Virus record (IMG/VR): IMGVR_UViG_3300010356_003454
Location: 72,820-136,819 of that record
From: a virus
Taxonomy: Duplodnaviria > Heunggongvirae > Uroviricota > Caudoviricetes
Length of the DNA stretch: 64,000 nt
Reading direction: 5' to 3' (one strand)
Shown in pieces: positions 3,040 to 58,780 of the stretch (the stretch's first letter is position 1; every line of letters begins with the position of its first letter). The notes beneath the pieces were generated by a model. That model was not told the DNA's origin. It did no database searches and saw only the letters and a program-made list of their open reading frames with translations. A program made the position numbers and the translations under genes.

Positions 3040-3407
3040 TGAGGGCTAAATTTGTTAATGAAAAAATGGATTTTGAAAGAGGCATCCATCCTAAACAGGC
3101 TTTGGATGTTGGCGGGATTTGTTTGGGAGAGGAGAGATGGAAAATGAAGAAGAAATTGGAGGACGATTGGAAATTCTTATTATTAACTCTTCTAGATGGT
3201 AAGACCATTTCAGCTCAGATGAATAAGAGATCCGCAAATGGCGGGAAGCTAACTGGAAAAGATACTTGGGGTAATTATACAGTTACTATTGAAGACTGGG
3301 AGGTCCCCGATATTGATGATATGGGGATCAATATAATAGGAACGGATAAAGAATACTATATTCTTCCTATTGATGATAAAAAGATATACATACATAATGC
3401 GCGCTAA
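3039..3407 (+). CDS. MRAK/FERG-leader family protein
   Basis: N-terminus MRAKFVNEKMDFERGIHPKQALDVGG. Confidence 0.6.
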   Translation: MRAKFVNEKMDFERGIHPKQALDVGGICLGEERWKMKKKLEDDWKFLLLTLLDGKTISAQMNKRSANGGKLTGKDTWGNYTVTIEDWEVPDIDDMGINIIGTDKEYYILPIDDKKIYIHNAR

Positions 3408-16008: not shown

Positions 16009-16083
16009 CGATTTTTTAGCGATAATATTTTTTTATTAAGGATCTTTTTATTATATTTGTCCTATTAAAGGCAAAAAAGTAAT

Positions 16084-22006: not shown

Positions 22007-22330
22007 ATGAAAAGTTACATTCATGAATTTCGCAAATGGGGACCAGTTTCTCGCTGCATCGTTCATATTAAAGAAGTAGGCGATTCTACTTGGATCGGAT
22101 TCGAAAACAGGAGGGATGGAACCTCGGTTACAAATGCTTCAGAAGATCTGGCTACGGGGATTGTTGCCAAAGAAGGCCTGGATCCAGCGAAATGCAGATT
22201 CTTCGAATTTTATCCAGAGTACGAAGGAGATGTAGATGAAATCACATATACCTGGGATTCAGAAGGAAAGGCAAGAAATCCCCAATGGAGACCATTTGTA
22301 AAAGCAGAAAATAATCCCTTTCTTGGATAA
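22007..22330 (+). CDS. hypothetical protein
   Basis: ORF. Confidence 0.35.
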   Translation: MKSYIHEFRKWGPVSRCIVHIKEVGDSTWIGFENRRDGTSVTNASEDLATGIVAKEGLDPAKCRFFEFYPEYEGDVDEITYTWDSEGKARNPQWRPFVKAENNPFLG

Positions 22331-22866
22331 TGGATTTTACGAGGGGCATAGAAGTTAAGCAGGCTATTGGAATAGGAAATCCAGATCGATTAGCTTTTAT
22401 AAAGGCATTTAATTCAGATCAATATACCGATCTTGCAGCTCTCCCGATAAACCATATTATTGATGGCGTAGGGATAGGTCTTATAACTATTGATGAGATA
22501 AAGATTTTTTTGGATAAGTTTGTTGAAAAATTTGATACTAATTCTAATTATCATAAGACCAGATGGGTTTTGGATGAATTTTTCAATACTTTTAATGTTA
22601 GTATAAGTGTTGAAAAACGTATCCCAAAAATTAAGATAAAATTTCAATTAGCTGAAAATAAATTTATTAGCTATAGGATGTGGAAAGAAGGCGATGAATA
22701 TTATGTAAGGGGTATTGGAACCTATTATTCTCCTAACTTTGATTCTAACCGGCCATTATTCAGATGTCCTGTGAACCAATCTTTTTTTGCAGGGATTCCC
22801 CCAATAACAATAATGTTTAGGGATATGGATAGAATAGTTAAAGATCTTATGTCATATAATAGGTGA
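22330..22866 (+). CDS. FERG-leader family protein (leader MDFTRGIEVKQAIGIGN, no MRAK)
   Basis: Truncated form of the leader. Confidence 0.45.
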   Translation: MDFTRGIEVKQAIGIGNPDRLAFIKAFNSDQYTDLAALPINHIIDGVGIGLITIDEIKIFLDKFVEKFDTNSNYHKTRWVLDEFFNTFNVSISVEKRIPKIKIKFQLAENKFISYRMWKEGDEYYVRGIGTYYSPNFDSNRPLFRCPVNQSFFAGIPPITIMFRDMDRIVKDLMSYNR

Positions 22867-22896: not shown

Positions 22897-23448
22897 ATGA
22901 AGAAAAAGTGGGTGTGGATCATTATTGCAGCTATTATAGTCCTTGTAGGATTTATAATTTTTATAAATGTTCGTCAGAAAAAACTTGATGCTAGGCCTTT
23001 CAATGTCTATGAATATCCCGAGACAATAAAGATTATTAATGGAACAGAATTTTCTAAAGCAGATACTATAATATTATCTCTAGCTCACCAAGTTTTTAAA
23101 TTCGATTCTGTTCAAATTCTTTTATACTATATTCCAGATCATTTGAATTCAGGAGAAATGGAATTTTATGGTATAGTTCAGCAGACTCCTTTTGATAAGA
23201 ATAAATTTCTGATATTGGTCAATAGAAAATTAGATCTTACAGATCTTTTTACGACTCTTTCTCATGAATTTGTTCATATCGATCAGTATAAGAGAGGAGA
23301 CCTAGAAATTATAGGAAAATATGCTGTTTGGCAAGGAGACACTTTAGATATGACACAGGTTAAATATGAGACTAGACCATTTGAAAAAGAGGCGTTTGGA
23401 AACCAGAGAGTTATTGCTAAAGAAGTAAAAGAATTCCTATATGAATGA
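22897..23448 (+). CDS. membrane-anchored HExxH metallopeptidase-like protein
   Basis: N-terminal TM helix. HEFVH motif. Confidence 0.4.
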   Translation: MKKKWVWIIIAAIIVLVGFIIFINVRQKKLDARPFNVYEYPETIKIINGTEFSKADTIILSLAHQVFKFDSVQILLYYIPDHLNSGEMEFYGIVQQTPFDKNKFLILVNRKLDLTDLFTTLSHEFVHIDQYKRGDLEIIGKYAVWQGDTLDMTQVKYETRPFEKEAFGNQRVIAKEVKEFLYE

Positions 23449-23966
23449 GAGCTAAAACTGTAAATTTCCAGAGGGGATTAGATCCGAAGGAGGCCTTGGA
23501 AATAGGTAATGAAAATCTAAGGCAATTCCATAAAGATATGGATAATGGAAATTTTTTGGCTCCTCTTCATATTTTGATGGATGGGCTGGAAAGAGGATAT
23601 ATCTCGGATAAAGAAGCTGATGAGTTTATAATTGGAGCAGTCAGAACTAGTGCTCCCAGATATTGGGAATGGACTAAATGGTTTGAGGATACAAGAAATA
23701 TCTATTGGTCTGAATTTAATGAGTCTCTAAATATTAATTTTACGCTTCCCGATTTTAAGAGGATTAAAACATGGATAGGTAAAATAACAGAACATGATGG
23801 AGGTTATTGGTTTAAGATGAGAACTTCTTCCACTGATAAAAATGGAAATGGATATGGCATAGAGACGGAAAATGTTTTTTCGGATGATGATTATGCTTTT
23901 ACATCTAAATTTATCTTGAATCAAATTAATAGAGTATTTACAGAAACAGTTAGAAATATAGATTAA
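23445..23966 (+). CDS. MRAK/FERG-leader family protein
   Basis: Leader MRAKTVNFQRGLDPKEALEIGN. Confidence 0.55.
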   Translation: MRAKTVNFQRGLDPKEALEIGNENLRQFHKDMDNGNFLAPLHILMDGLERGYISDKEADEFIIGAVRTSAPRYWEWTKWFEDTRNIYWSEFNESLNINFTLPDFKRIKTWIGKITEHDGGYWFKMRTSSTDKNGNGYGIETENVFSDDDYAFTSKFILNQINRVFTETVRNID

Positions 23967-25183
23967 TGACTTTACCTAAACAATTAAATGATATTCTTGA
24001 TTTTCTTAGAGGACAAGACTGGATTCAGTCTCTGAATTCTATAGGGGATACTTATATGGTCGGAGGCTGTGTGAGGGATGCTTTCCGTGGCCAGAAGATT
24101 AAGGATATAGACCTTATTGTTGAAGGAACTACAATGGATCAGATCTTAGACGAATTGAGGCCTTATGGTAGAGTCGATCAGGTGGGCGAATCTTTTGCTG
24201 TAATTAAGTTTAGGCCTAAAGGTCATATTGGAGAAGATTATGATATTGCAGTTCCTAGAGTTGATAGAAAAATAGGATCTGGCCATAAGGGATTTGTTGT
24301 AGAGACTAAAGGAGTTAATCTTGTGGATGATTTGGAGAGAAGGGACTTTACCATAAATGCTATTGCCGTTAAAGTGGATAATGGAAGATTGGTAGATCCT
24401 TATTCTGGATTGGCGGATCTGAAAGCTGGAGTTCTTCGTGCGGTAGATGATATAGCATTTATTGAGGATCCTCTTAGAATTCTTAGAGGTATACAATTTG
24501 CGGCTCGCTTCGGATATAGGATCACGAATGGAACTATGAAATTAATGAGGGAAAATGCTCATTTAATTAAAGAGATTTCAGGAGAGAGAATATTTGAGGA
24601 ACTTATGAAGGTTCTGGATAAAGGAGGAGATACTCAGCTTGCTCTAGATCTTCTTCATCAGACTGATGTGGATGTAGCTCTATTTGATAAGAAGATGCTT
24701 AAATATGATCAGGGCTTTGAACATCTAGATCCCGCCTCTTTCTTCTATGTCTTGGGGCTCTTGGGAGATGTTAATCCTGCCGATTTCCTTAAAAAGAGGC
24801 TTAGGGGCGATAATAGACTTGAGAAGAATGTAAGAGTTCTCGATCGTATTTTTGAGATGCTTCCTCGAATGGTAGAGGACGAGGATCTAAAATACATGCT
24901 CTCTAAGGCCTTTACCGCTGCTCCTGAAGTTATGGATGCTGTAATTCTTCCTGATGAAGTCGATGAAATCGTTCTCCAGATGAGGACAATGAAAATTCCG
25001 ATGAACGAAGGAGATATAAAAATCGGAGGGGAGGATATTAAGAGAATAGGCCAGCTAAAAGAAGGACCTGAAATAGGATTCATCAAGGAGAAAATATTGA
25101 GGGATGCTCTAATGAATAGGTTTAATTGGAAAGACCGGGATAAGAGTTTAGAATATTTGCAGAATCTACTATATTCGAAATGA
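23966..25183 (+). CDS. cca: tRNA nucleotidyltransferase (CCA-adding enzyme) / poly(A) polymerase head-domain protein
   Basis: GGCVRDAFRGQKIKDIDLIVEG is the Pol-beta-like NTase head motif of CCA enzymes. Length 405 aa. Confidence 0.7.
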   Translation: MTLPKQLNDILDFLRGQDWIQSLNSIGDTYMVGGCVRDAFRGQKIKDIDLIVEGTTMDQILDELRPYGRVDQVGESFAVIKFRPKGHIGEDYDIAVPRVDRKIGSGHKGFVVETKGVNLVDDLERRDFTINAIAVKVDNGRLVDPYSGLADLKAGVLRAVDDIAFIEDPLRILRGIQFAARFGYRITNGTMKLMRENAHLIKEISGERIFEELMKVLDKGGDTQLALDLLHQTDVDVALFDKKMLKYDQGFEHLDPASFFYVLGLLGDVNPADFLKKRLRGDNRLEKNVRVLDRIFEMLPRMVEDEDLKYMLSKAFTAAPEVMDAVILPDEVDEIVLQMRTMKIPMNEGDIKIGGEDIKRIGQLKEGPEIGFIKEKILRDALMNRFNWKDRDKSLEYLQNLLYSK

Positions 25184-26134: not shown

Positions 26135-26153
26135 ATCTTAACGATTTTTTAAC

Positions 26154-26193
26154 AAAATTATTTTTTTATCTCGGAAATTATTCTTACATTAGC
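26154..26193 (+). promoter_or_regulatory. conserved intergenic module copy
   Basis: AAAATTATTTTTTTATCTCGGAAATTATTCTTACATTAGCC, preceded by CTTAACGATTTTTTAAC. Confidence 0.35.
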
Positions 26194-26212
26194 CTCTATA
26201 AAAGAATAGAGT

Positions 26213-27324: not shown

Positions 27325-28164
27325 ATGGAGATAGGTTATATTTATGCGATAATTAATAAAAGGAATGGTAAATTTTATTTTGGCAAAACCTTTGATATTC
27401 AAAAAAGGTGGAAAAAACATGTTTTTAATGCTACTAAAAAAATAAATCGAAAACTTTATGATTCTATGAATTCATATGGTTATGATTATTTTTCTATTCA
27501 TCAAATTGGAATATACAAAGCAGAAAATAAAAATGAATTAACTAAGATACTAAATGAAAGGGAAAGATACTTTATAAATTTTTCTGATTCTGTTTTACTT
27601 GGCTATAATATGGCTCCTGGCGGGGATGGCGGATATTTAGGGGAGGAAGCTATACAAAAGATATCAAATAAAAAGAAGGGAATAAATTTAACAGAGGAAC
27701 ATAAAAAACATATTTCAGAAGGGAATAAAGGGATTTCAAAAATAGTATCGGAAAAAACAAAGAACAGGATTAGAAAAACTTGTAAAGAAAAAGGAATAAA
27801 ACCGCCGGCACAATATTGGGGAAGACCCGGATATAATGAACATCCGATGCTAAATAAGCATCATACAGAAGAAGCCAGAAATCTGATGAGTCAATATAGA
27901 TCCGGGAAATCCTATGAAGAAATTTACGGAAAAGAAAAAGCAAAGAAATTGAGGTTGGAAAAATCAAAAAGATGGATGGGAAATAAAATAAACTTTAAGG
28001 AAGTAGATTTAGAATTAGCAGAAAATCTTCTTCAGAAAGGAAAAAATTATAAAGAAGTCGCAAAATTTTTAGGAATTAGTTTAACAACATTTAATTATAA
28101 ATTTCGAGAAAAACATAACATAACACCGTATCAATATAGTTTAAATTTAAAAATAATGTCATGA
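27325..28164 (+). CDS. GIY-YIG homing endonuclease
   Basis: MEIGYIYAIINKRNGKFYFGKT (canonical GIY-YIG). NUMOD3-like LTEEHKKHIS. C-terminal HTH-like region. Confidence 0.75.
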   Translation: MEIGYIYAIINKRNGKFYFGKTFDIQKRWKKHVFNATKKINRKLYDSMNSYGYDYFSIHQIGIYKAENKNELTKILNERERYFINFSDSVLLGYNMAPGGDGGYLGEEAIQKISNKKKGINLTEEHKKHISEGNKGISKIVSEKTKNRIRKTCKEKGIKPPAQYWGRPGYNEHPMLNKHHTEEARNLMSQYRSGKSYEEIYGKEKAKKLRLEKSKRWMGNKINFKEVDLELAENLLQKGKNYKEVAKFLGISLTTFNYKFREKHNITPYQYSLNLKIMS

Positions 28165-28706
28165 AAAAATTATCCGCTATTTTTGTTTTTTTATTGTTTG
28201 CTTTTCTGAGCTTTGGCCAAATTCCATTATCTATTAACAATATAGATGAATTCAATGGATCTGTTAATAAAGTCACCAGAAGCTCATACTCTGTATTTAA
28301 AAGTGAAAATTCCATCGGAAATATAAGTTTATCTATGGGAAGGGTAGATAGCACATATTTTCTAATATTAAGAGTATCTACAGATCTTGGATGCCTATCT
28401 CAATATGACGGAAAATGTATGATAAAATTTTCGGATGGAACTATACTTAATTTTGCCCAGGGATCGGAAACAGATTGTTCGGAGTCCCCTGCAGCTCAAT
28501 ACTATTTAGTTGCTCGAGAAGAAATGAATCTGGAAAATGTTTTTCAAATAATGAAAATAAACCGAGAAAAAATAGAGTCTTCTTCTATTGATAAAATTCG
28601 GGTTTATGGATCAAAATATTATGCAGATTATATTCCAAATCCAAAATTTAGAGAGGATTTTAATGCAAAAGATGTTCTTATTTTTCACATTAAATCTTTA
28701 AAATAA
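28161..28706 (+). CDS. secreted hypothetical protein
   Basis: N-terminal signal peptide. Confidence 0.35.
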   Translation: MKKLSAIFVFLLFAFLSFGQIPLSINNIDEFNGSVNKVTRSSYSVFKSENSIGNISLSMGRVDSTYFLILRVSTDLGCLSQYDGKCMIKFSDGTILNFAQGSETDCSESPAAQYYLVAREEMNLENVFQIMKINREKIESSSIDKIRVYGSKYYADYIPNPKFREDFNAKDVLIFHIKSLK

Positions 28707-29464
28707 TGAAACAATTGATAGAGCTTTCTGAAGGAACGGACGTAACCGGACTTCTTGGGATTACTAAATGGGAGCCTCAGATTCCTGCTTGCCTTGCCGG
28801 TCTTGCTAAGGGAGCCTTTCCTTCTCATTCCATCAAGACGGATGAGGAAAGGGTTCAGAACCTTGTGGACATATATGAGGAATACCGTACCAGATACACC
28901 TGGATTGCTACGGAAAAACTTGATGGATCGTCCACGACTTATTCTATTGTCAATGACGAATTTGGAGTTTCTTCTCGCAATCTGGAACTTAAAGAGACCG
29001 AGGATAATACCTTCTGGAAGGTTGCAAGAGCTCTTGATGTTGAGGAAAAAATGAGGAAGTATATGACTGATCACGGTCTTAATGCTTTGACTCTTCAGGG
29101 TGAACTTCTTGGAGAAGGGATTCAGAAGAATAAGTATCATCTTAAAGGCCATACAGTGAGATTCTTCAGGGTCTTCGATCCTACCGCTTATTCTTTCTTC
29201 CCATATCATCAGGCTATAAAGGCTATTGCAGAAATGGGACTTGATTTTGTTCCTGTTATTGAGACTGATATGACTCTTCCCGACACAGTTGAAGAGATTA
29301 TTCGCTATGCAGATGGAAGATCAGCTCTTTATGAAACTGCAAGGGAAGGAGTGGTATTCGTTGCTGATCAGCTTATTGATAAGTCTGCGGATCTTAGCAG
29401 ATACCAAGGAAGGCTTTCATTTAAGGTTATTTCAAACAAATTCATACTAAAACACGAAGAATAA
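28706..29464 (+). CDS. ATP-dependent RNA ligase (Rnl/PF09414-like nucleotidyltransferase)
   Basis: KxDG adenylation motif in ATEKLDGSST. Length and motif spacing fit small RNA ligases. Confidence 0.6.
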   Translation: MKQLIELSEGTDVTGLLGITKWEPQIPACLAGLAKGAFPSHSIKTDEERVQNLVDIYEEYRTRYTWIATEKLDGSSTTYSIVNDEFGVSSRNLELKETEDNTFWKVARALDVEEKMRKYMTDHGLNALTLQGELLGEGIQKNKYHLKGHTVRFFRVFDPTAYSFFPYHQAIKAIAEMGLDFVPVIETDMTLPDTVEEIIRYADGRSALYETAREGVVFVADQLIDKSADLSRYQGRLSFKVISNKFILKHEE

Positions 29465-32281: not shown

Positions 32282-32710
32282 ATGAAAAAGCTGATATTCC
32301 TACTATCGATAGCTCTTCTTTTTGCTTCATGCGAAAAAGAGCCGGAGCCTGAACCAGAACCGCAGACTCTAATAGAGTTTCTGGAAGGAGAGTGGACCTG
32401 CAATCGACAAACTGTTCAGGGCCATCAGGCAGATTTAACCCTGACATTTACAGAGGATAACTACACGTTATTTGTGGATTTTGCCGAGCATATTATTCCC
32501 AACTTTACAGCCACAAATAAGGGTTATCAAATTCTAAATGAAGACCGGAGAGTTCGATTAGATTATCCATATTCCCCAGAATCTTTCTTAGTAGAGTATG
32601 ATGTGGCTTGGACAGAGCTTAATCAGGAGAATATGACCTGGACTCCAAGACCAACTAATGAGAAGAATATAACGAGCAATCCTGTCATGCTAACCTGGAC
32701 AAGAAAATAA
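32282..32710 (+). CDS. putative lipoprotein
   Basis: MKKLIFLLSIALLFASCEKEPEP. Signal peptide plus lipobox Cys. Confidence 0.4.
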   Translation: MKKLIFLLSIALLFASCEKEPEPEPEPQTLIEFLEGEWTCNRQTVQGHQADLTLTFTEDNYTLFVDFAEHIIPNFTATNKGYQILNEDRRVRLDYPYSPESFLVEYDVAWTELNQENMTWTPRPTNEKNITSNPVMLTWTRK

Positions 32711-32731
32711 GTTAAACTTTTGTTAAAAAAG

Positions 32732-32765
32732 TTCCCGAGGTATCGTTGATATCTCGGGAATTTTT
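32732..32765 (+). terminator. rho-independent terminator fused to a -10-like TATATTAG
   Basis: ttcccgag/ctcgggaa 8-bp perfect stem followed by TTTTT, then TATTATATTAGCC. Confidence 0.5.
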
Positions 32766-32794
32766 ATTATATTAGCCCTATAAAACAAAAGATT

Positions 32795-33457
32795 ATGAAT
32801 TTCGAAAGAGGCAAAGATCCGCTTAGGTCAATGGGAATAGGTCATTCTCAGAAGAGAGAATTCGCCAGCATTAGAGAGGCCGCAGAATGGGCTCTTCTCT
32901 TCCCTGCTGAATACACCGATGGCCAGATTACTAAATGGTCCAGGGATATGATAAGCTCTGGCAGGCTGGAACTTCCTAATGGAGTTCATACCGGTTGGCT
33001 TCAGATGGTTAAATGGATGAAGGATAATATCCGTATTCCCTCTCTTTTCGGGAATGAAAAAATTGGTCTTAAGGAGGCTAAAAATGTGATAGACCTTATG
33101 AGAGAAATGATCCCAGTCTATCTGATGAAGGGGGATAACCTGATGGCTAATTATAATACAGCTCTTAAGGAACTATACGATCATGTAGGATTCAAAGAGG
33201 ATTGGGTGGTATATCCCGTTGATGATAGAACAGATATGTTCTGGTCTCTTGATGGCGATTCTGCTGTAAGATATTCTGAGACCGAAGAAAAGCTTAAGGA
33301 CGAAGCTGCTGGTGAATACTACGAAGATGAAATTTACAAGCAGAGGTTCTATTCCAAATGGATCTATGAAGGCCAGGATCTCACCATGATTTTTGTCGAT
33401 ACTCATGTTGATGGCATGAGATACTTTGCAATATTTAGTAATTCAAAAAAGATATGA
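32795..33457 (+). CDS. FERG-leader family protein
   Basis: MNFERGKDPLRSMGIGH. Confidence 0.55.
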   Translation: MNFERGKDPLRSMGIGHSQKREFASIREAAEWALLFPAEYTDGQITKWSRDMISSGRLELPNGVHTGWLQMVKWMKDNIRIPSLFGNEKIGLKEAKNVIDLMREMIPVYLMKGDNLMANYNTALKELYDHVGFKEDWVVYPVDDRTDMFWSLDGDSAVRYSETEEKLKDEAAGEYYEDEIYKQRFYSKWIYEGQDLTMIFVDTHVDGMRYFAIFSNSKKI

Positions 33458-33756
33458 AGCTAAATCCTGCAGGATACGGAAATCATAATAACCTCTGGTG
33501 CACAGCACGCAAATGGGGCATCACCTTTAAAATCATGGTCTTCTTCAATTCCGGAAATGCTTATATCATGAAGAGCACTAAGAAGAATTTTGATTCGACT
33601 CGGGATTACAATAAACTCTACAAAGAATTAAAGGAGTCATTAGCAGATATGGATTTTGTTCTCCAAACACCAAGAAAAAGGTATTTACACTGTAATATTA
33701 GAACTACCGCTAATCTCATGCATCATCTCAAACAAATGGGAATAAATGAACTTTGA
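33454..33756 (+). CDS. hypothetical protein
   Basis: ORF inside the tandem FERG array with no leader. Confidence 0.3.
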   Translation: MKLNPAGYGNHNNLWCTARKWGITFKIMVFFNSGNAYIMKSTKKNFDSTRDYNKLYKELKESLADMDFVLQTPRKRYLHCNIRTTANLMHHLKQMGINEL

Positions 33757-34081
33757 CAGGGATTCAGATATTAAAACTCGTCTTGGTATAGGAAGATATA
33801 CAGAAGAGAATCTGATTAGAATTATATCAGAAGCTCTTCGAAAATCTCATTCTTTTAGTGAATATGTTCTATCAAATATGCCGGTCTTGATATCTAGTCA
33901 TGTTGCTGAATGGATTCACCCTAAGACTGGCGGATATTTCAATCTTATAAAACCAGAAAAATTATCTATGGAATCTCATAATAAATTCCCTGGATATTTT
34001 ATTACTTATGACGATGGGGGATTTTCCTATGGTAATTTATCCCTATCAGCTTTTTTTAAAGATTTTAATATAGAGCTATGA
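33746..34081 (+). CDS. FERG-leader family protein
   Basis: MNFDRDSDIKTRLGIGR. Confidence 0.5.
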   Translation: MNFDRDSDIKTRLGIGRYTEENLIRIISEALRKSHSFSEYVLSNMPVLISSHVAEWIHPKTGGYFNLIKPEKLSMESHNKFPGYFITYDDGGFSYGNLSLSAFFKDFNIEL

Positions 34082-34410
34082 ATTTCGAAAGAGGTATAAG
34101 TCCTAAAAAATCAATGCGAATAGGCATTGGAAGTCAGGCTCTTCATTTAAGAGGCATTTATAATAGAAATATAATTTTCAGTACTTTACCTGATACCGAT
34201 GATACTGCGGTTGAATTTAGAGTAATCAATGGACCTGATGGACATAGGATTTTCAAAGAAATACAGGAAAATGGGATTCAATCGAAACATGAAAAGTATT
34301 GGGTTCATACAGGAGGGAGTCAAGGACATCTTCCTATTGATTGGATAGCTGGACGATGGATTGAGTATCTAAAGAGCTATTATAAAATACCAGAAAGAGA
34401 TGAATTTTGA
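34078..34410 (+). CDS. FERG-leader family protein
   Basis: MNFERGISPKKSMRIGIG. Confidence 0.55.
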   Translation: MNFERGISPKKSMRIGIGSQALHLRGIYNRNIIFSTLPDTDDTAVEFRVINGPDGHRIFKEIQENGIQSKHEKYWVHTGGSQGHLPIDWIAGRWIEYLKSYYKIPERDEF

Positions 34411-34678
34411 AAGAGGAAAAGACCCGAAAGAGGCTTTAGGAATAGGAATAGAACGAGCTGTTCTAAACATTATTCGGAGAAATATTTCGGATGCTGTTAT
34501 TTCTGTTGACGGGGAAATGAGAAAACATATAATAAGAGAAATAGAAAAATTTACTGGATGGAGAGAGGCAAAACATTGGACTTCTATGGATCAAAATAAG
34601 GTTTTTAGATTTATTAATCCGAAAGATGAAGCTAAAATAATTGTCATTAATTTAGATTATAGAAAAGACTATGCCTAA
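34400..34678 (+). CDS. FERG-leader family protein
   Basis: MNFERGKDPKEALGIGI. Confidence 0.55.
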   Translation: MNFERGKDPKEALGIGIERAVLNIIRRNISDAVISVDGEMRKHIIREIEKFTGWREAKHWTSMDQNKVFRFINPKDEAKIIVINLDYRKDYA

Positions 34679-34997
34679 TTTTGAAAGAGGAAAAAATCCA
34701 AAAGAAGCCTTAGGAATAGGCTTATTCTCAAAGAGATGTTTTGATTCAGTACTAGCTGCTAGAAAATGGCTAGTTCAAAATCATGTGGATATTTTAGGAT
34801 TGAATGGCCTTTGCGATCCATATCCTACTGAAGAGCAATTTGCAAATCTTCGAGCTTATGTTGAAAAATATATTTCCTATAGCGATGATGAATCTTGGAC
34901 ATCAGATAGCCTTGTTAATGGGGTAGCTCAGCTCTATAGGGAACTACATGAAGTAAGAAATTCTATTGGAAATATAATGAACGGTAATAATAGATAA
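34671..34997 (+). CDS. FERG-leader family protein
   Basis: MPNFERGKNPKEALGIGL. Confidence 0.55.
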   Translation: MPNFERGKNPKEALGIGLFSKRCFDSVLAARKWLVQNHVDILGLNGLCDPYPTEEQFANLRAYVEKYISYSDDESWTSDSLVNGVAQLYRELHEVRNSIGNIMNGNNR

Positions 34998-34999
34998 TT

Positions 35000-35755
35000 A
35001 TGAAAGAAGAATTTTCACCACTGACAATTGAGAAATTAGAGCATTATGTCTATACACTTTCTGATTCTCGGACCGGCCAGGTTTTCTATGTAGGTAAGGG
35101 AGTTGGAAACAGAGTATTTTCTCATGTGAATGATGCTCTGGAAACAGAATCAGAATCAGATAAACTGGATCATATTAGATATCTGATAGCTAAAGGATTC
35201 CCGCCAAAACATACTATAGTCCGCCATGGAATGGACAAGGATACGGCATTTGAGGTTGAAGGAGCTCTTATTGATGCATTTCAATTAGAAGGCCTTAAGA
35301 ATGAGGTAAATGGCCATCATAACAATCAGAGAGGACGTCGGGATTGGCAGGATATAGAAATCGAGTATGGAGCCGTTTCAGCGACCATAGACGATCCTGT
35401 TATCATACTTAAGACATCAGATTGGAGTTGGGATAAAGTGTCTAATACGGTCATATATGATAATATACGCAAAGGCTGGTGGGTCTCAGGTGATAAGAGG
35501 AAGAAGATCAAGTATGCATTGGCTATAAAGTCAGGTATTGTTAGAGAGGTCTATGCTATAGACCATTGGGACGATAACTGGGGAATTACTAACAAGAAGG
35601 GAACTGCATGTAAGAAGGATTTTGTTGGAACTGTGGCTCCTGTAGAGATCAGGGATAAGTATATCTATAAGGATGTTTCGGCATATTTTGCTATTCCGAG
35701 ATTACAGAAAGCATATGTTAATGTAGATGACAAAAAGAAGGAAAAAAATCCATAA
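35000..35755 (+). CDS. GIY-YIG nuclease-like protein
   Basis: HYVYTLSDSRTGQVFYVGKGVGNRVFSH has the GIY-YIG core plus a conserved Arg. Confidence 0.5.
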   Translation: MKEEFSPLTIEKLEHYVYTLSDSRTGQVFYVGKGVGNRVFSHVNDALETESESDKLDHIRYLIAKGFPPKHTIVRHGMDKDTAFEVEGALIDAFQLEGLKNEVNGHHNNQRGRRDWQDIEIEYGAVSATIDDPVIILKTSDWSWDKVSNTVIYDNIRKGWWVSGDKRKKIKYALAIKSGIVREVYAIDHWDDNWGITNKKGTACKKDFVGTVAPVEIRDKYIYKDVSAYFAIPRLQKAYVNVDDKKKEKNP

Positions 35756-35794
35756 AATATTTTTTTATCTCGGAAAGTTTGTTTATATTTAGAG
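35754..35794 (+). promoter_or_regulatory. conserved intergenic module copy
   Basis: AAAATATTTTTTTATCTCGGAAAGTTTGTTTATATTTAGAGG followed by GTAATTAAAAA and the ATG at 35813. Confidence 0.35.
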
Positions 35795-35812
35795 GTAATT
35801 AAAAACAAAAAA

Positions 35813-36694: not shown

Positions 36695-37093
36695 ATGAGA
36701 GCTAAAAAAGTAAATCAGTTATCTATGGATTTTGATTACAGGGATGAGGATCAATTTCCAGATGCTCAAGGGGAGGATCTTGATTTCTTAGAAAAATTAG
36801 CCTGGCAATTTGAAGAAAGATTTCCGATGGGAACTTATGCTTTTAGTTTTTGGCGTCCTGAAGAAGATGGTCCAGCTGTTTTTGAAGTTATAACAAGTGA
36901 AAATCCAGATAAGAAGTTTTTTGATGCTATGTATTTTAAGGCTGAAGGAGGATTTGGATTTAGTATTGGCGAAGGCCCAGTTAGAAAACCCATGTATCCT
37001 GAATTGCTGAAGCTAAAAAATAAAGGGATAGAGGTTAAAAAATATTTAATATCTAATGATCGCTGGTCTGAATTTGAAAAAATGAATTCTTAA
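36695..37093 (+). CDS. MRAK-start family protein (diverged leader)
   Basis: MRAKKVNQLSMDFDYRDED. Confidence 0.4.
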   Translation: MRAKKVNQLSMDFDYRDEDQFPDAQGEDLDFLEKLAWQFEERFPMGTYAFSFWRPEEDGPAVFEVITSENPDKKFFDAMYFKAEGGFGFSIGEGPVRKPMYPELLKLKNKGIEVKKYLISNDRWSEFEKMNS

Positions 37094-37095
37094 TT

Positions 37096-37611
37096 ATGAG
37101 AGCAAAAACTGTTAATGAGAATAATCAATTTGAAAGAGGACAGGATCCTAAAGATGCTATGGATATAGGAAGATACAAAGATCTTAAGGATAAAGATTTT
37201 GATATATGGAATTTTTTTCGATTTCTTCAGTTTAAAGAACATTCTGAAAGTAATGGAGTAACTTTTTATTCAAGAGGTGGGGGACAAGATGAATGCTATG
37301 ATTTTAAAAGAATTTATTATTTCGATGAATATAACTGGATTTCTGATGAAGAAATAATGGATATATTTAGTAGTATTAATAAAAAAGAGCTTCTTAAAAT
37401 TTCGGATAATATAGAGTTATTAGCTTTTAAAGGATCTACTCAACAGAGCACATATTCTTTCCAAGTAGTATTTAAGGGCGATTATCAAGATTATATGGAT
37501 AGGGGGGAGGAAGAGACTATTGAAAAAATAGAAGAATATATTTCAGAATACTTCACTGAAAATTCCGAAGAATTTATTAATTTTGAGGATGAAGAATATG
37601 AAGATGAATAA
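37096..37611 (+). CDS. MRAK/FERG-leader family protein
   Basis: MRAKTVNENNQFERGQDPKDAMDIGR. Confidence 0.55.
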   Translation: MRAKTVNENNQFERGQDPKDAMDIGRYKDLKDKDFDIWNFFRFLQFKEHSESNGVTFYSRGGGQDECYDFKRIYYFDEYNWISDEEIMDIFSSINKKELLKISDNIELLAFKGSTQQSTYSFQVVFKGDYQDYMDRGEEETIEKIEEYISEYFTENSEEFINFEDEEYEDE

Positions 37612-38128: not shown

Positions 38129-38157
38129 TTTTTTCTTAAATTTTAACGTTTTTTCTT

Positions 38158-38187
38158 CCCAAACATCGTTGGTGTTTGGGAATTTTT
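38158..38187 (+). terminator. rho-independent terminator in a conserved module
   Basis: cccaaaca/tgtttggg stem followed by T-run. Preceded by AATTTTTTCTTAAATTTTAACG, which is identical to the sequence at 49742. Confidence 0.5.
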
Positions 38188-38220
38188 GTTTATATTTATA
38201 GTGTAATTAAACTTAGTGAG

Positions 38221-44758: not shown

Positions 44759-45988
44759 ATGAGAGCTCGATTTGTACTTTACGAATTCGCTAAAAACAAA
44801 GATTCTAAATATTATGCTCCTGATTATCTTATACAGGAGCTTATGGATGCTGTTAACAAGTATGTTCCTCTCCATGAGATAGATCATATAGTTGAACCAG
44901 CTTCTGGCGACGGAGCGCTAATACCTTTTATTGATAAGATAGCTAATGCCTATAATATTGATACCAGCTATTATGATCTAAAACCAGATCCAGGCAATCC
45001 TCGTATTGAACAGCAAAACTTCTTAGACTATTCTCCAGAACCATATTTCAGTCCATCTAGGCTTGTACTCACAGGACCACCTTATGGGGAACCTGGAGCT
45101 ACAGCCAAACTATGGAAGCAGTTCGCTCAGAAGGCTTCAGAGGTGGCAGGATATGTCGCTTTTATCTCTCCGGTTACTTGGCTTGATGTGAAACATCCTG
45201 TTCCTCATCTAGAACTTATCTATCAGAAGGACATGGGGTGGGTTAAATTCAGGGGCAGCGAAGCTTTCGGCGGTGAAGACCATCCTGTTAAGACTGCTAT
45301 ACTTATCTATAAAACTATCAAAGAGCCACAAACTGAAGACTTTTCATTTATAGATAACGATTTCATTATTCAGGAGATCTATGGTCGTGATAACTTCAGG
45401 AATAGAAAATACGATTATTATATTCTCTCCTGGGGCCGTGATTCAGGCAGAGTTAATACCTCAGGAAGGTATCCTGATGGCCGACTATTTTCTAAGGCAA
45501 TTGGAATAAAGGTCTTGGATGAGGCTCGTAGGGATGATTTAGAAGCGTTTTTAGAGACTTTCGAACAGGACTATAAGGATAAGATCGCCAGATACTCAAT
45601 TACAACAGCTAATGTCTTAAGTGTGCCTCGTTTTAAGAGATTTCTCGGAAACGCTCTATATTCGGGGATGAATGAATCTATAGACTTCGAAAGAGAAGGG
45701 AATCCATACGAGAAATTACGTATCGGTCGTAAGGTAACAAGGCCTTATCCTCAAATGAAGCCGAAAGAATTTTTTCAATGGTATCAGTCTGAGGCCTTTC
45801 CATATTATGATTCCGATGAGTTCTCTTTTTCTAGCGTGCTTTCAGATCTTGTTAATGACGAGGAGTCTACAGATGAAGAACTTCGAGAGGTATGGACTGA
45901 AGAACTTGATGTTCCAGAAGAAGTTATAGATAAACTATTACCTATGCGGGGTTATTTCTTAGATTTCCGCTATATTCAGAACATATGA
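44759..45988 (+). CDS. MRAR-leader protein with methyltransferase-like fold (non-canonical GPPY) and C-terminal FERG module
   Basis: Leader MRARFVLYEF. Motif-I-like EPASGDGAL. TGPPYGE sits where NPPY would be. A C-terminal FEREGNPYEKLRIGR...RPYPQM...MRGYF module is paralogous to the 46607 C-terminus. Confidence 0.5.
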   Translation: MRARFVLYEFAKNKDSKYYAPDYLIQELMDAVNKYVPLHEIDHIVEPASGDGALIPFIDKIANAYNIDTSYYDLKPDPGNPRIEQQNFLDYSPEPYFSPSRLVLTGPPYGEPGATAKLWKQFAQKASEVAGYVAFISPVTWLDVKHPVPHLELIYQKDMGWVKFRGSEAFGGEDHPVKTAILIYKTIKEPQTEDFSFIDNDFIIQEIYGRDNFRNRKYDYYILSWGRDSGRVNTSGRYPDGRLFSKAIGIKVLDEARRDDLEAFLETFEQDYKDKIARYSITTANVLSVPRFKRFLGNALYSGMNESIDFEREGNPYEKLRIGRKVTRPYPQMKPKEFFQWYQSEAFPYYDSDEFSFSSVLSDLVNDEESTDEELREVWTEELDVPEEVIDKLLPMRGYFLDFRYIQNI

Positions 45989-46617
45989 AACTAGTACCAG
46001 AACATATAGATGAGGTAATGGGCTTCCAAAGAGGAATAGATCCTAAGGAGGCTATTGGTATAGGAAGGCTAGCGAATATACCTAGCGAAAAGATCCGTAA
46101 TGCTTTTGCATGTGTCCGCAATTATTCTCTTGAAGATCTTGAGGATATGTATAGAAGGATTAGAGCTAAATCTAATATCTCTCTTGATGGAGTTCCTATA
46201 GAGAAATTATCTAATCATGAATGGATAGAATTTAATAATAAAGTTGTTAATGGTATTAAATCTCTTAGGAGAAGAAAGGTAAAAGCGGTCTCTCCATTTG
46301 GAGAAGGCGATATCCTAAAAGTAGTTCATCACGGAAGGACTTATTTTGGAGTTTATGATGGAATAGACAAACATGGGAGGATTAAGGCAAAGGGGAATAG
46401 GGCTAGATTAGCATTTGGCTTAGACAGATATACTCTCGCAACTCCGGAAGAGGCAGAAGCTTTTAGAAAAGAAGCAATTGAAAGAGAGAAACAGAGATGG
46501 GATTTGCAAATTCGCCGAGTTAAAATGCTGCTTTCAATGGGATCTGCTAAACCGGAAGATCTAGAAAGACTTATAAGAGACTATAAAAATACATTCCGAG
46601 AAGATTATGAGGGCTAG
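45985..46617 (+). CDS. FERG-leader family protein
   Basis: MGFQRGIDPKEAIGIGR. Confidence 0.5.
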   Translation: MKLVPEHIDEVMGFQRGIDPKEAIGIGRLANIPSEKIRNAFACVRNYSLEDLEDMYRRIRAKSNISLDGVPIEKLSNHEWIEFNNKVVNGIKSLRRRKVKAVSPFGEGDILKVVHHGRTYFGVYDGIDKHGRIKAKGNRARLAFGLDRYTLATPEEAEAFRKEAIEREKQRWDLQIRRVKMLLSMGSAKPEDLERLIRDYKNTFREDYEG

Positions 46618-47293
46618 AAGAGTCATAGAATCTATCAATTTCGAAAGGGGAAAGGATCCTAAAACAGTTATGGATATAGGAAGGACTAAATATGCGTTTC
46701 CTGTCGAAGATATTATTTTCAGAGGGGGAAATGTAATATCTCCTGAAGAGGGCGATAAGTATTTAAGGACAGTTTTACCTAGGAGATTGAAGAGCGTTAT
46801 ATCCAGGCCAGGTGCAGTTTGGAATTACCCAAGATTCAAAGATGGCCTTCATTATGCAGATGCTAAATGGATCATGAGACAAGGCTATAGCGGAATTAAA
46901 TATAAGGGAACTTTTTATCCATTTCCTAAAATAGAGGGATTTGATTTCCAAAGGAGCGGTGAAGAAGAAATCGATGAATCTGTAAATTTCGAAAGAGGAA
47001 AAGATCCTAAAAAGGTTTTACGTCTTGGAAGAGTTCGTCCGTATCCTGATATGACTGTGGAACAATTCCAGAGATGGTTTAGAGAAGAAATAGTTCCTTA
47101 TTTAGATGATGATGGTGAACAGGCTATTGTAGATAATCTATTGATGAATGATTGGGAGGCTGATTGGGAAGTAGCTGAATATTTAAGGGGAAGGCATCTG
47201 TCGCCGGAGATTGTTGACGATTTAATGTATATGAGGGGCTACTTTAATGACAGAGAATATATAAAGAGACTATTTGACGAAAAATTATTTTAA
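46607..47293 (+). CDS. MRAR/FERG-leader protein with two FERG modules
   Basis: N-terminal MRARRVIESINFERGKDPKTVMDIGR. Internal VNFERGKDPKKVLRLGRVRPYPDM...MRGYF. Confidence 0.5.
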   Translation: MRARRVIESINFERGKDPKTVMDIGRTKYAFPVEDIIFRGGNVISPEEGDKYLRTVLPRRLKSVISRPGAVWNYPRFKDGLHYADAKWIMRQGYSGIKYKGTFYPFPKIEGFDFQRSGEEEIDESVNFERGKDPKKVLRLGRVRPYPDMTVEQFQRWFREEIVPYLDDDGEQAIVDNLLMNDWEADWEVAEYLRGRHLSPEIVDDLMYMRGYFNDREYIKRLFDEKLF

Positions 47294-47296
47294 GAT

Positions 47297-47941
47297 ATGA
47301 AGCTAGTAGCAGAATCACTTAATGAGGCCTTAAATGAGGGAGCTCTTATAAAATTTGGAAGAAGCACGCAGAGTTTGAAAGAGGAGTATCCTATTTTCAA
47401 GAACTTATCTGTTGCAATGATACTTGAAGCTCTTCAGAGAGTGAATTCTACTCATTTTACAGGAGGAAAATTAGATTTATTCAAGTTCTATGACTTTATA
47501 AAGAAATTTAGGGGATATACTAAATCCTTTAATGATATGAAGGAGGTTATGACTGAAATCGCTCCGGTTTTAGGTATTGTGGATCAGATTCGCTTTTCTA
47601 GAGAGGAAAGGAGCGAGATTAAATTTAAAGAGAAAGCTCTAAATGGAGAGGTTCCTATAGAGTATTTTGATGAGGCTGAGATTCCAGAGGATACTATAGA
47701 AGATGAGGATTATGTTGTTAGAAGCATGGGCGGGGATACTGAACCCGCTTTCTATAGATTTGATAGAGAACTTAATCAGAGAGAGCGAAATCTATTAAGA
47801 GTATCTTATGCCCTTAATCATGGTAATCCTGAAGTTAGCACATGGAGAACTTATCTTGGTGCAGTTCCGGCTAAAGTAGGATTTGTTCGAAGAAATAATA
47901 GAAGTTTTGATTATACAGCAGGACTTGCAAAAAAGAGATGA
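47297..47941 (+). CDS. MKLVAESLNE-leader family protein
   Basis: MKLVAESLNEALNEG. Confidence 0.45.
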   Translation: MKLVAESLNEALNEGALIKFGRSTQSLKEEYPIFKNLSVAMILEALQRVNSTHFTGGKLDLFKFYDFIKKFRGYTKSFNDMKEVMTEIAPVLGIVDQIRFSREERSEIKFKEKALNGEVPIEYFDEAEIPEDTIEDEDYVVRSMGGDTEPAFYRFDRELNQRERNLLRVSYALNHGNPEVSTWRTYLGAVPAKVGFVRRNNRSFDYTAGLAKKR

Positions 47942-47947
47942 TAAAAT

Positions 47948-48571
47948 ATGAAATTAGTAGCAGAATCACTTAAGGAATTCTTAGGAATTAATAGGCTGGA
48001 CGAATTTGAGAGATCCGGAGATCCTCATAAGACTATGGGTATAGGACTCGAACCAGTTATTAAAGACTGGATGAGAAAGAATACTCATTATAATGTTGAT
48101 GAGAAGCCAGCCGAATACTCATGGAGAAAACCTCCTACAGTCTACAGTCTCTTATGGCTTTCTGTGAAGCATAATCATCCGCAGTGGGTTAAAGCTCTTT
48201 TGCAAAAGGGATATGATCCTAATGAGAACGGTGGTGCTGCTCTAAGATGGGCTTGCGGTCTTGGTTATAAAGATATAGTAGGTCTCCTTCTTGATGCTGG
48301 AGCTGATCCAGATGCTAAAGGACCAAGCGGTCCTCAGGAGGCTTATGAATGGGCAAGGCGAGAAGGTCATAGAGATATTATTAAAATGCTGGATATGAGT
48401 AAGGCGGGATATACTTTTACAGATAAAGGTCCGGATTTTGAACTACCAGAAGAGCCAGAAGAAGAGTCTAAAAAGACCCCCGAAGCTCCTCCCGTTCCGG
48501 CTAAGCCCGTAGAGCGACCCGAAGAGGAAGAGGAAGAGGAAGAGGAAGAAGAAAAAGGAGGCTGGTTTTAA
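47948..48571 (+). CDS. MKLVAESL/FERSGDP-leader ankyrin-repeat protein
   Basis: Leader MKLVAESLKEF...FERSGDPHKTMGIGL. Ankyrin repeats (NGGAALRWACGLGYKDIVGLLLDAGADPDAKG). C-terminal poly-E tail. Confidence 0.55.
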   Translation: MKLVAESLKEFLGINRLDEFERSGDPHKTMGIGLEPVIKDWMRKNTHYNVDEKPAEYSWRKPPTVYSLLWLSVKHNHPQWVKALLQKGYDPNENGGAALRWACGLGYKDIVGLLLDAGADPDAKGPSGPQEAYEWARREGHRDIIKMLDMSKAGYTFTDKGPDFELPEEPEEESKKTPEAPPVPAKPVERPEEEEEEEEEEEKGGWF

Positions 48572-49455
48572 TGAAGGCTATGAGAGTCATAGAATCGGTA
48601 GAATTTCAGAGAGGAGCAGATCCATATACTTCTTTAGGTATAGGAAAGTCTACTCAAAGGGATTTTTCTGGTGGTAAAGAACTCATAGAATGGGCTTATA
48701 ATTTTCCTGCAGTATGGTCTAAGGGGGAGATCCCGGAATGGAATGATTCTGATTACATAATTAGAAAACCATTCGGCGGATACCTCGAAGAAGTCTATAT
48801 ACAGAGAATGAGGAATATAAAGCTTATAGTAATAAAATGGATTAAAGATAATATTACTATTAATGGAGAGCCTTTAAGCCTTAAAGAAGCTATGAATATG
48901 TTTGAAGAAATTCAGAAGTTCGTTATTAAGAATCTAGAAAGGGAACGGGGAATTAGAGAGAGCATAGATTTTCATAAAGGAGGTAATCCGCTGGATACGC
49001 TAGAGGTTGGCAGAATAGAGGAAAGAAAGGATGCAGCATATAGATCTTTTATGGATTGGCTTTCTACATACTCATTTAAGGAGGCAGATGTTATTGAAGA
49101 GACTTATGATCAACCTTATGGATTCTTTGGTGATGATGAAAAGGAGGCTTTGATATTTAATGGATTAACTGTTGATGAAGTTTCTAAGAAAACTCCAGAA
49201 GAAATGGAGAGATATTTCAAAATTGTAGAAGAGGTTTTCGGCCTCACTTTTTGGGCCGCTGAAATAGCTAAATTGGAATATGAAGAATATAAAACTATGC
49301 CAGAGGAGGATAAAGAGGAGCTGGAGCAAAAGATAGAAGATGATTTTGGAACATATAATTTTTTGGAATATCTTGTAAAGTATTTCATTAATAAATGGCC
49401 AGGAAAGGTAAAAATAAAAGATCCATATGAGAGCAAAAAGCGTAAACGAAGCTAA
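48571..49455 (+). CDS. FERG-leader protein with two modules
   Basis: N-terminal MKAMRVIESVEFQRGADPYTSLGIGK. Internal IDFHKGGNPLDTLEVGR. Confidence 0.5.
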   Translation: MKAMRVIESVEFQRGADPYTSLGIGKSTQRDFSGGKELIEWAYNFPAVWSKGEIPEWNDSDYIIRKPFGGYLEEVYIQRMRNIKLIVIKWIKDNITINGEPLSLKEAMNMFEEIQKFVIKNLERERGIRESIDFHKGGNPLDTLEVGRIEERKDAAYRSFMDWLSTYSFKEADVIEETYDQPYGFFGDDEKEALIFNGLTVDEVSKKTPEEMERYFKIVEEVFGLTFWAAEIAKLEYEEYKTMPEEDKEELEQKIEDDFGTYNFLEYLVKYFINKWPGKVKIKDPYESKKRKRS

Positions 49456-49744
49456 TTTCGAGAAGGGACAAGATCCTAAGGATGCTCTGGGTATTGGAGT
49501 TGGCGAAAAACTCCGAATGGAGGGTATAGATGCTCTTACTCATTTCCTATATTATGCTAATGCAAAGGATATGATAAAAAAAGTCTGGAATGACTGGGAT
49601 CATATGTGGGATAAGCTAAAGAACAAAGTCGGGGATGGATATATGGATCCGAATGCTCTTATGAGTTTTATAAGAGATTTAGATGTGGAGAATCAGAAAA
49701 AGCTATATGATTATATTATAAAGAACCATTCGAATAAATGGTAA
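49427..49744 (+). CDS. MRAK/FERG-leader family protein
   Basis: MRAKSVNEANFEKGQDPKDALGIGV. Confidence 0.55.
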   Translation: MRAKSVNEANFEKGQDPKDALGIGVGEKLRMEGIDALTHFLYYANAKDMIKKVWNDWDHMWDKLKNKVGDGYMDPNALMSFIRDLDVENQKKLYDYIIKNHSNKW

Positions 49745-49773
49745 TTTTTTCTTAAATTTTAACGAAATTCCAG

Positions 49774-49802
49774 CCGTAATATTTTTTTATTACGGTTTTT
49801 TT
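49774..49802 (+). terminator. rho-independent terminator in a conserved module
   Basis: ccgtaata/tattacgg perfect 8-bp stem followed by a 7-T run, then TTGTTTATATTAGC and GTAATTAAAA. Preceded by AATTTTTTCTTAAATTTTAACG. Confidence 0.55.
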
Positions 49803-49835
49803 GTTTATATTAGCTCTGTAATTAAAATTAATTTT

Positions 49836-57088: not shown

Positions 57089-57116
57089 CCGGGATTTTTT
57101 AATCTCGGGTTTTTTC
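57089..57116 (+). terminator. rho-independent terminator in a conserved module
   Basis: cccgggat/atctcggg stem followed by TTTTTT, then CTTTATATTAGC. Confidence 0.5.
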
Positions 57117-57145
57117 TTTATATTAGCAAAATAAAATACAATCTT

Positions 57146-58729: not shown

Positions 58730-58780
58730 AACCCATAGGTGCTAACTTTAAACATATCTTTTTGGATATATAGAATAAAA

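Follow-up and report, generated by a model that had tools for sequence, protein, structure and literature searches.

The internal proteins of phage T4 are diverse anti-defence proteins with a capsid-targeting sequence (CTS) alone in common (PMC3012670), and T4-type prohead proteases cut after Glu, processing Alt at ITE-6 and LTE-619, with A/S/G-x-E as the corresponding motif in giant phages (PMC5694885). In the phiKZ/SPN3US-like phages, gp53 and gp54 of SPN3US have an identical N-terminal propeptide that is cleaved after Glu, the rest of the two proteins having diverged (PMC5694885). We describe here a locus that can be set beside these systems, in a 64,000-nucleotide stretch of a tailed virus (Caudoviricetes) from the IMG/VR record IMGVR_UViG_3300010356_003454 (positions 72,820 to 136,819); we call this whole stretch the window and number it from its first nucleotide. 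At 32795-34997 of the window, five small tandem genes encode proteins that begin with variants of one short leader peptide, such as MNFERG, and carry different bodies behind it. This leader, which we call the FERG motif, recurs elsewhere in the window and in many metagenomic proteins. The locus is very probably a hypervariable array of tagged, exchangeable modules, and apparently one instance of a widespread, undescribed system of such modules in large uncultivated phages.

The array lies on the + strand. Its first member, also the upstream anchor of the comparisons below, encodes 220 amino acids (aa) (32795-33457; leader 32795-32842, start MNFERGKDPLRSMGIG) and is followed by a leaderless open reading frame (ORF) of 100 aa (33454-33756), a 111-aa member with a degenerate leader (33746-34081; leader 33746-33793, MNFDRDSDIKTRLGIG), a 110-aa member (34078-34410; leader 34078-34125, start MNFERGISPKKSMRIG), a 92-aa member (34400-34678; leader 34400-34447, start MNFERGKDPKEALGIG), and a 108-aa member (34671-34997; leader 34671-34721, start MPNFERGKNPKEALGIG). 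Successive stops and starts, including those of the leaderless ORF, overlap by 4, 11, 4, 11, and 8 nt, and a gap of 2 nt separates the last member from the downstream anchor, a GIY-YIG (LEM-3-like) endonuclease gene (35000-35755, + strand) that is kept in the window and in the metagenomic relatives L008 and L022. An earlier sequence-only reading had described five overlapping head-to-tail genes that lack the MRAK prefix of other copies, with one leaderless ORF interleaved, and the ORF coordinates confirm this layout; neither MRAK nor an in-frame upstream [IVL]xE is present in any of the five (0/5). All five leaders follow M(P)NF[ED]R[GD]..(L/M)xIG and start MNFERG, MNFDRD, or MPNFERG. The leaderless ORF is present in L008 and L009 and missing from L022, and its protein is 85-95% identical in relatives. 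The 220-aa protein consists of the leader, an N-terminal body paralogous to the product of 48571-49455, and a C-terminal beta domain that is a stand-alone protein in other phages (phrog_24232; BFVD DUF7415-like). Copies 98% identical to the 92-aa member occur in metagenomes (P0001), and a word-indexed protein search with this member returned near-identical copies only; with the leader profile as query, such a search gave nothing but short fragments, matches apparently being no longer than the query.

The 220-aa gene and the GIY-YIG gene serve as fixed anchors, and between them we find four different cassette sets in the window and its metagenomic relatives. The encoded proteins, anchor included, measure 220, 100 (leaderless), 111, 110, 92, and 108 aa in the window; 224, 100 (leaderless), 111, 92, and 109 aa in L008; 220, 100 (leaderless), 111, 92, 153, and 107 aa in L009-L012; and 221, 106, 108, 147, 104, and 261 (leaderless) aa in L022/L023. 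Both copy number and content therefore differ at this locus among related phages, a comparison that the sequence-only reading had proposed. The 110-aa cassette, 322 bp long, occurs in the window only, being missing from L008-L013 and having no homologue in L022; relatives align up to window position 34094 and resume at 34400, and a four-way junction alignment places the crossover inside a shared 17 nt, ATGAATTTYGAAAGAGG, at the start of the leader. The extra 153-aa cassette of L009-L012 is likewise inserted at a leader, that of the 108-aa gene, between window positions 34711 and 34677. Because the breakpoints fall inside leader DNA, cassettes are gained and lost via recombination between leader-coding repeats. 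The adjacent GIY-YIG endonuclease may raise local recombination. It is one of four homing-endonuclease-like genes in the window (27325-28164, 35000-35755, 50799-51617, and 58739-59539), three of which are of the GIY-YIG type, one of these also having NUMOD3; the fourth is NUMOD3 plus TnsA-like. The leaderless 261-aa protein that stands just before the GIY-YIG gene in L022 (4378-5163) combines a hydrophobic N-terminal segment with a zincin-like HExxH motif (HELTH).

The array had also been taken for a set of recently duplicated tandem genes whose bodies diverged rapidly, and on this point the comparisons speak otherwise. Stripped of their leaders, the five bodies give no BLASTP match to one another (all E>0.05), and hhalign comparison of the body families yields probabilities of at most 2.2% except for one pair, the 108-aa and 220-aa families (16.5%, over 14 columns just after the leader). 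They do not form one conserved domain of housekeeping function, and neither alignable bodies nor near-identical repeats, as would mark a tandemly duplicated paralogue family, are seen. The leader DNA is itself only 49-80% identical within the array (25-41 of 51 nt). Identity at the three codon positions across 17 window leader copies is 0.64, 0.75, and 0.46, third positions being lowest, and the invariant Phe and Gly are coded by several synonymous codons; the leader is for these reasons conserved as peptide and not as DNA, selection acts on it at the protein level, and the repeats are old. Given the dissimilar bodies, the diverged leader DNA, and the recurrence of the bodies in multi-module proteins described below, the array looks like a collection of different modules under one tag, put together and altered through recombination within the DNA that encodes this tag.

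The motif recurs in the window far beyond chance. A hidden Markov model of the 15-aa leader core has 18 matches of at least 11.6 bits on the + strand and nothing above 4.2 bits on the - strand of the window; a weaker plausible copy, MDFTRG at nt 22336 (5.4 bits), brings the total to about 19. A degenerate DNA pattern gives 14 matches, all on the + strand, against 0.29 expected. Most leader copies outside the array carry the prefix MRAKxVNExxx.

We searched 1.84 billion representative proteins with a profile built from the window leaders alone, and obtained 1,423 matches at E<=1e-3 and 420 at E<=1e-10. Among the best matches, protein length reaches 1,511 aa and the number of motif copies 12. 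In the best 150 proteins there are 608 motifs at a median spacing of 117 aa (5-95%: 93-162), which together define a motif of ~22 aa, [IVL]xES[IVL][ND]FERGxDPKx[AS][ML]GIG. Counted from the Phe at position 0 (604/608), Glu occupies -4 in 576/608, a hydrophobic residue -6 in 479/608, and Ser, Asn, or Ala -3; D(+5) and P(+6) are almost invariant. In N-terminal copies the Phe stands at index 2 (MNFERG), 8 (MIVRENINFERG), 9, 11 (MRAKxVxExxxFERG), or 13, while indices 3-6 are almost unused. Either the whole [IVL]-x-E-[SN] element is therefore present or the protein starts with Met at -2. All five array genes have Met at this hydrophobic -2 position.

The tag precedes every ~117-aa module, whether the module is a single gene, an array member, or one of up to 12 beads on a string. 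Bodies of the array reappear as internal modules of long proteins: that of 33746 resembles module 2 of P0124, that of 32795 modules 1-3 of P0143, and the 108-aa body of 34671 matches module 7 of P0070 and P0052. The architecture recurs in unrelated contigs: in L017 seven MNFERG genes stand in tandem behind a 980-aa protein with six motifs, and L068 carries a tandem of five. Fusion or fission of modules can be seen directly in two overlapping window genes, 48571 (294 aa) and 49427 (105 aa), which correspond to one in-frame 231-aa ORF in L008 (10285-10980); the 49427 gene starts MRAKSVNEAN, and in the fused ORF of L008 the motif is internal (ERGIKENMEFEKG). The long multi-motif ORFs of L008 are open in the standard code (table 11), and we therefore dropped the idea that they arise as an artefact of stop-codon reassignment.

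The modules are highly diverse, 690 of them falling into 245 sequence clusters of which 168 are singletons, and their isoelectric points are no different from those of other ORFs. Several end in a Y-x-G-x-x-Y-x-[IV]-P-like tail. Pfam finds no peptidase in 73 multi-module proteins and recognizes ankyrin repeats in 9 of them and GNAT domains in 3. With no recognizable bodies in the family other than ankyrin and GNAT, an anti-defence or host-takeover role of the array is plausible. The view of the array as an arms-race-type family, put forward in the sequence-only reading, accordingly keeps its first part, the variation of copy number and content among close relatives, and loses the part that rested on recent duplication.

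Structure prediction likewise places the motif outside the modules. An AlphaFold2 model of the 220-aa protein (22 aligned sequences; mean pLDDT, the model's per-residue confidence score, 78) leaves leader residues 1-19 unpacked at pLDDT ~41-43, with the body at ~86-90 and the C-terminal beta domain at ~90. A fold search of this model against the PDB found nothing significant, and the C-terminal domain matched, in BFVD, only uncharacterized small proteins of T4-like and jumbo phages. In a low-confidence model of the two-motif protein 46607-47293 (mean pLDDT 53), both motif regions are the lowest-confidence segments, and one module is alpha/beta and the other all-alpha. The motif, being predicted disordered and unpacked and standing before modules of different secondary-structure class, appears in these predictions to behave as an appended linear peptide and not as part of a common fold.

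Several familiar identities for such a peptide were considered, and most were set aside. A helix-hairpin-helix element (h-x-G-h-G) finds no HhH Pfam match at E<=0.1, AlphaFold2 predicts no helix after GIG, and the residues after GIG are unconserved. A 2A-like or TEV-like site (E-x-h-x-F-[EQ]) does not fit the invariant Arg at the next residue, and the array members are without the upstream half. Sec, Tat, and type IX secretion system (T9SS) signals do not fit the hydrophilic, N-terminal leader peptide. The cargo-loading peptide of encapsulins (LxIGSL-type) is a terminal GSLxIGSLK-like consensus encoded next to an encapsulin shell gene. It has only the four residues [LM]-x-I-G in common with the FERG leader, and the window contains no shell gene; the likeness amounts to a lead and not to a match.

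Neither Pfam, PHROGs, nor NCBIfam contains the motif, and scans of the array and the other leader proteins against them gave only ankyrin (47948), phrog_24232, and GIY-YIG; the phrog_24232 match, to a family of unknown function, is limited to the C-terminal half of the 220-aa protein. Searches of PDB sequences with the leader profile, and of deposited phages (50,697 records) by tblastn with a triple consensus (E>=3), gave chance matches only. A 26-base degenerate pattern was found in one 2.9-kb contig of a metagenome-assembled genome (MAG) among 185,579 species-representative genomes, and a search of the searchable literature in full text with motif strings returned nothing relevant. The bead-on-a-string architecture and leader-mediated cassette exchange appear in none of the searched databases or literature. 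With the motif absent from curated sets, deposited phages, and nearly all cellular genomes, it is, as far as these sequence collections reach, specific to uncultivated viruses. Two carriers bear cellular labels, P0001 (a Candidatus Paceibacterota MAG) and L093 (Candidatus Diapherotrites archaeon ADurb.Bin253, 2.9-kb contig); both are short digester MAG contigs and most likely mis-binned phage fragments.

The genes of the window lie on one strand, at a G+C content of 35%. Its family B DNA polymerase is closest to those of Lak megaphages (39% identity) and then to those of T4-like phages. In a megablast comparison, 10 kb of sequence matched no deposited phage. The polymerase ORF (6564-8006) is short (480 aa) and corresponds to the C-terminal ~400 residues of the polymerase profiles; a separate gene may encode the exonuclease part, or an insertion may have split it. 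The only sizeable - strand ORF (13133-13819, 228 aa) lies within a 722-nt gap between + strand genes. Also encoded are a ribonucleotide reductase, an NAD-dependent ligase, a CCA-adding enzyme, an RNA ligase, RlaP, a dUTPase, and methyltransferases. The CCA-adding enzyme, the RNA ligase, and the RlaP-type nucleotidyltransferase (23966-25183, 28706-29464, and 55971-57074) point to a set for tRNA/RNA repair, although no tRNA gene of the window is detected by ARAGORN.

The FERG genes of the window, all on the + strand, are spread among these. Genes with both the MRAK prefix and the FERG motif lie at 2605-3039, 3039-3407, and 3954-4739, the last being listed as overlapping a HAD-like gene with the MRAK prefix only (3397-3945; MRAKRVPYKAYIFDFDDT). 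Further members are found at 22330-22866 (MDFTRG, short class) and 23445-23966 (MRAKTVNFQRG). Downstream of the array and in its transcription unit there is a member at 37096-37611 (MRAKTVNENNQFERGQDPKDAMDIG), which is preceded by a gene with a degenerate prefix (36695-37093). A second FERG cluster spans 44759-49744 and consists of a methyltransferase with a C-terminal FERG module (44759-45988; motif at 45686), 45985-46617, the two-motif gene 46607-47293, the ankyrin protein gene 47948-48571, 48571-49455, and 49427-49744. The motif of the methyltransferase is followed by an ~100-aa "RVRPYPQM" module, which is also the second half of 46607-47293 and is common in metagenomic multi-module proteins. 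An MRAK/MRAR prefix may have a role of its own, since it is present without the FERG core on recognizable enzymes, namely the HAD-like hydrolase (3397-3945) and the DNA methyltransferase (44759-45988; MRARFVLYEF).

In other contigs the genomic setting differs: gp6-, gp25-, and gp5-like baseplate genes adjoin FERG genes in 10-15 of 57 contigs, and in L068 a FERG gene (9995-10456) stands between gp25-like and gp6-like genes, behind a TATAAATA-type element. The context of FERG genes is therefore mixed, with the replication region in the window and baseplate operons elsewhere.

A terminator-like hairpin (32727-32765, + strand; 18 pairs and a T run) closes the upstream lipoprotein gene and marks the start of the array's transcription unit; it is also kept in L008 and L022, and the next hairpin in the window is at 38156. 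Promoter-like elements follow at 32768-32786 (+ strand), one of class A, TATATTAG, at -27 and one of class B, TATAAAA, at -16 from the ATG. Class A resembles the Bacteroidetes -7 box TAnnTTTG and stands before 21 of 34 gap-preceded genes against a background of 14%; class B stands before 14 of the 34 against 6%. The host-type (Bacteroidetes-like) element of the array, TAnnTT[TA]G, also heads the ligase and helicase operons. A recurring operon cassette, in which a T-run hairpin is followed by class A TAnnTT[TA][GA] at -25 to -34 from the ATG, is found for example at 16040-16083, 26150-26212, 32727-32794, 35760-35812, 38150-38220, 49760-49835, and 57090-57145. Class B, TATAAAT(A) at -10 to -29, resembles the T4 late promoter and also occurs before the gp25-like baseplate gene of L068. 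Upstream of the array, L022 (45-2235) and L023 (1773-3963) have genes for an Lcl_C-like protein and for a protein that ends in a T9SS sorting domain (Por_Secre_tail), and at the position of this T9SS-domain protein the window has a small lipoprotein (32282-32710). The T9SS-domain protein of a relative and the -7-box-like elements suggest a Bacteroidota host.

We consider it probable, at somewhat better than even odds, that one common partner reads the tag as an address or a processing signal. In the reading that we favour, a T4-type prohead protease would cut at [IVL]-x-E|S just upstream of FERG, and cleavage would separate the modules of long proteins or remove an MRAKxVNE propeptide of 5-8 residues. 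FERG itself would stay on the modules and dock them, so that they are loaded into the virion and delivered along with the DNA. The array proteins, with Met at -2, would be "pre-trimmed" and need no cleavage. The relatedness to T4-like phages and Lak megaphages, the T4-like baseplates, the existence of Glu-cleaving proteases, and the precedent of the T4 internal proteins lead us to this reading, which also fits the small and narrow module size. The 608-motif statistics show a sequence compatible with Glu cleavage at [L/I]-x-E. Taken as a whole, with tagged cassettes, an address or processing tag, and virion loading, we give this explanation a probability of roughly 0.4; its last element by itself, virion loading with proteolysis, we hold as a tentative and rather doubtful proposal drawn from analogy.

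The explanation also has points against it. The window contains no gene for a protease, capsid, or scaffold protein, and a walk beyond its ends towards the head genes reached only short contigs at one edge and no recorded protein at the other. Its FERG genes sit among replication and nucleotide-metabolism genes with the array behind a host-type promoter-like element, a setting no less suited to early cytoplasmic proteins than to virion cargo. The proposed site [IVL]-x-E is of low information, and the five array members are without it. The greater part of the conserved residues follows the putative cut and would stay on the protein, whereas the T4 CTS is removed. About 19 cargo proteins in 64 kb would be unusually many. 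The disorder of the tag is an AlphaFold2 prediction, and the second of the two models is of low confidence (mean pLDDT 53).

The alternative that survives best, although we still think it unlikely, is that the FERG peptide is a cytoplasmic docking tag that recruits early takeover or anti-defence modules, never packaged, to one hub, possible hubs being a host machine and, on the phage side, a chaperone, a modifying enzyme, or a protease (a timed degron). Multi-module proteins would then be multivalent scaffolds or be cut by a non-capsid protease. In favour of such a tag, the array and most other FERG genes of the window lie in the region of replication and nucleotide metabolism and follow a host-type promoter-like element, the tag is predicted disordered, and the recognizable bodies, ankyrin and GNAT, are typical intracellular effector domains. 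The docking model does not account for the narrow size of the modules or for the invariant Glu at -4, however, no candidate hub emerged, and FERG genes are also found inside baseplate operons behind TATAAATA-type elements.

It is improbable, in our judgement, that the modules form one ancient domain family of ~117 aa, the model of the sequence-only reading extended in time, in which tandem duplicates have bodies diverged beyond recognition and the motif is no more than the N-terminal structural element that a common fold has conserved best. The narrow module length (median 117 aa) and the shared tail on several modules would follow naturally from common descent, and there is local paralogy, the 106- and 104-aa genes of L022 being 33% identical (E 1e-8); the ~14 residues that the 108- and 220-aa bodies share after the leader (hhalign 16.5%) point the same way. 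Against common descent stand the five bodies without BLASTP or profile similarity, the spread of 690 modules over 245 clusters with 168 singletons, and the occurrence of ankyrin, GNAT, all-alpha, and alpha/beta bodies; moreover, AlphaFold2 leaves the motif unpacked on the body, and the array leader DNA is as little as 49% and at most 80% identical.

We regard as very unlikely that the leader acts as a DNA or RNA element, whether exchange site, translational operator, or homing target, with a functionless peptide: the cassette breakpoints do lie exactly in leader DNA and a GIY-YIG endonuclease does flank the array, but third codon positions are least conserved, invariant residues use synonymous codons, and the motif is equally conserved at hundreds of internal ORF positions that have neither a start nor a cassette border. 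Just as unlikely is a self-processing linker, in which G-x-D-P would split multi-module proteins by autocatalytic Asp-Pro cleavage (GDPH, FrpC-type), since the near invariance of D(+5) and P(+6) and the one window copy that reads GDPH (48005) are offset by the need of known cases for a folded surrounding domain where the FERG motif is predicted disordered, by the unexplained invariant F, R, GIG element, and E(-4), and by the lack of Pfam similarity to such self-processing modules.

Returning to the virion-loading reading, its strongest form would make FERG the universal sorting and processing signal of a T4/Lak-related clade of uncultivated phages, probably phages of Bacteroidota, with dozens of injected effectors per genome that the retained peptide would direct to the virion; they would be encoded by single genes, by exchangeable arrays, or within precursors of up to 12 modules, which a Glu-specific prohead protease would cut at [IVL]-x-E|S. 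We think this more far-reaching version rather unlikely; if true, it would amount to an injected arsenal, cassette-based and editable by recombination, far larger than the T4 internal-protein system. Leader-mediated exchange offers in any case a concrete mechanism for fast turnover of accessory genes. Should the tag be an address or processing signal, effector repertoires could be listed from sequence alone across uncultivated large phages, a repertoire that already exceeds 1,400 protein clusters, nearly all of unknown fold and function; the tag would then also offer a portable peptide with which foreign proteins could be loaded into such phages, a use already made of the T4 CTS.

Among described systems, the RxLR-dEER effectors of oomycetes, the PEXEL proteins of Plasmodium, and the MIX/FIX effectors of type VI secretion systems likewise place an N-terminal motif that is short and conserved, acts in trafficking, and is in some cases cleaved on a large repertoire of fast-evolving, clustered, and unrelated effectors; they belong to other organisms and other machineries and have no sequence relationship to FERG, so that the likeness is one of analogy only. 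The polyvalent proteins of phages and conjugative elements, reportedly described by Iyer et al. in 2017, are, like the FERG proteins, very long and built of many independent modules, and are thought to act in the incoming phase of infection. They contain recognizable enzymatic anti-defence domains and embedded peptidases and no repeated 22-aa motif, whereas the FERG multi-module proteins have only ankyrin (9/73) and GNAT (3/73) and no peptidase, and we do not class them as polyvalent proteins. The ejection and inner-body proteins of phiKZ/SPN3US-like phages are processed at an A/S/G-x-E motif and have no retained FERG-like peptide and, unlike FERG, neither multi-module proteins nor tandem arrays of tagged mini-genes.

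The T4 internal proteins (IPI, IPII, IPIII, and Alt) differ from the FERG proteins in several respects. The CTS (MKTYQEFIAE) has no sequence similarity to FERG, and FERG is not found in deposited T4-like phages or PHROGs. FERG genes number tens per genome against 3-4, their modules are concatenated up to 12-fold, and their packaging in virions is hypothetical. The resemblances are of another kind: in both systems a short N-terminal peptide heads unrelated small proteins, T-even internal-protein loci are, like the FERG array, hypervariable among related phages, and the [L/I]-x-E after which a gp21-type protease removes the T4 propeptides has a counterpart in the [IVL]-x-E at -6 to -4 of the FERG motif. 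Although by its sequence not a member of the T4 internal-protein/CTS system, the locus is conceptually closest to it.

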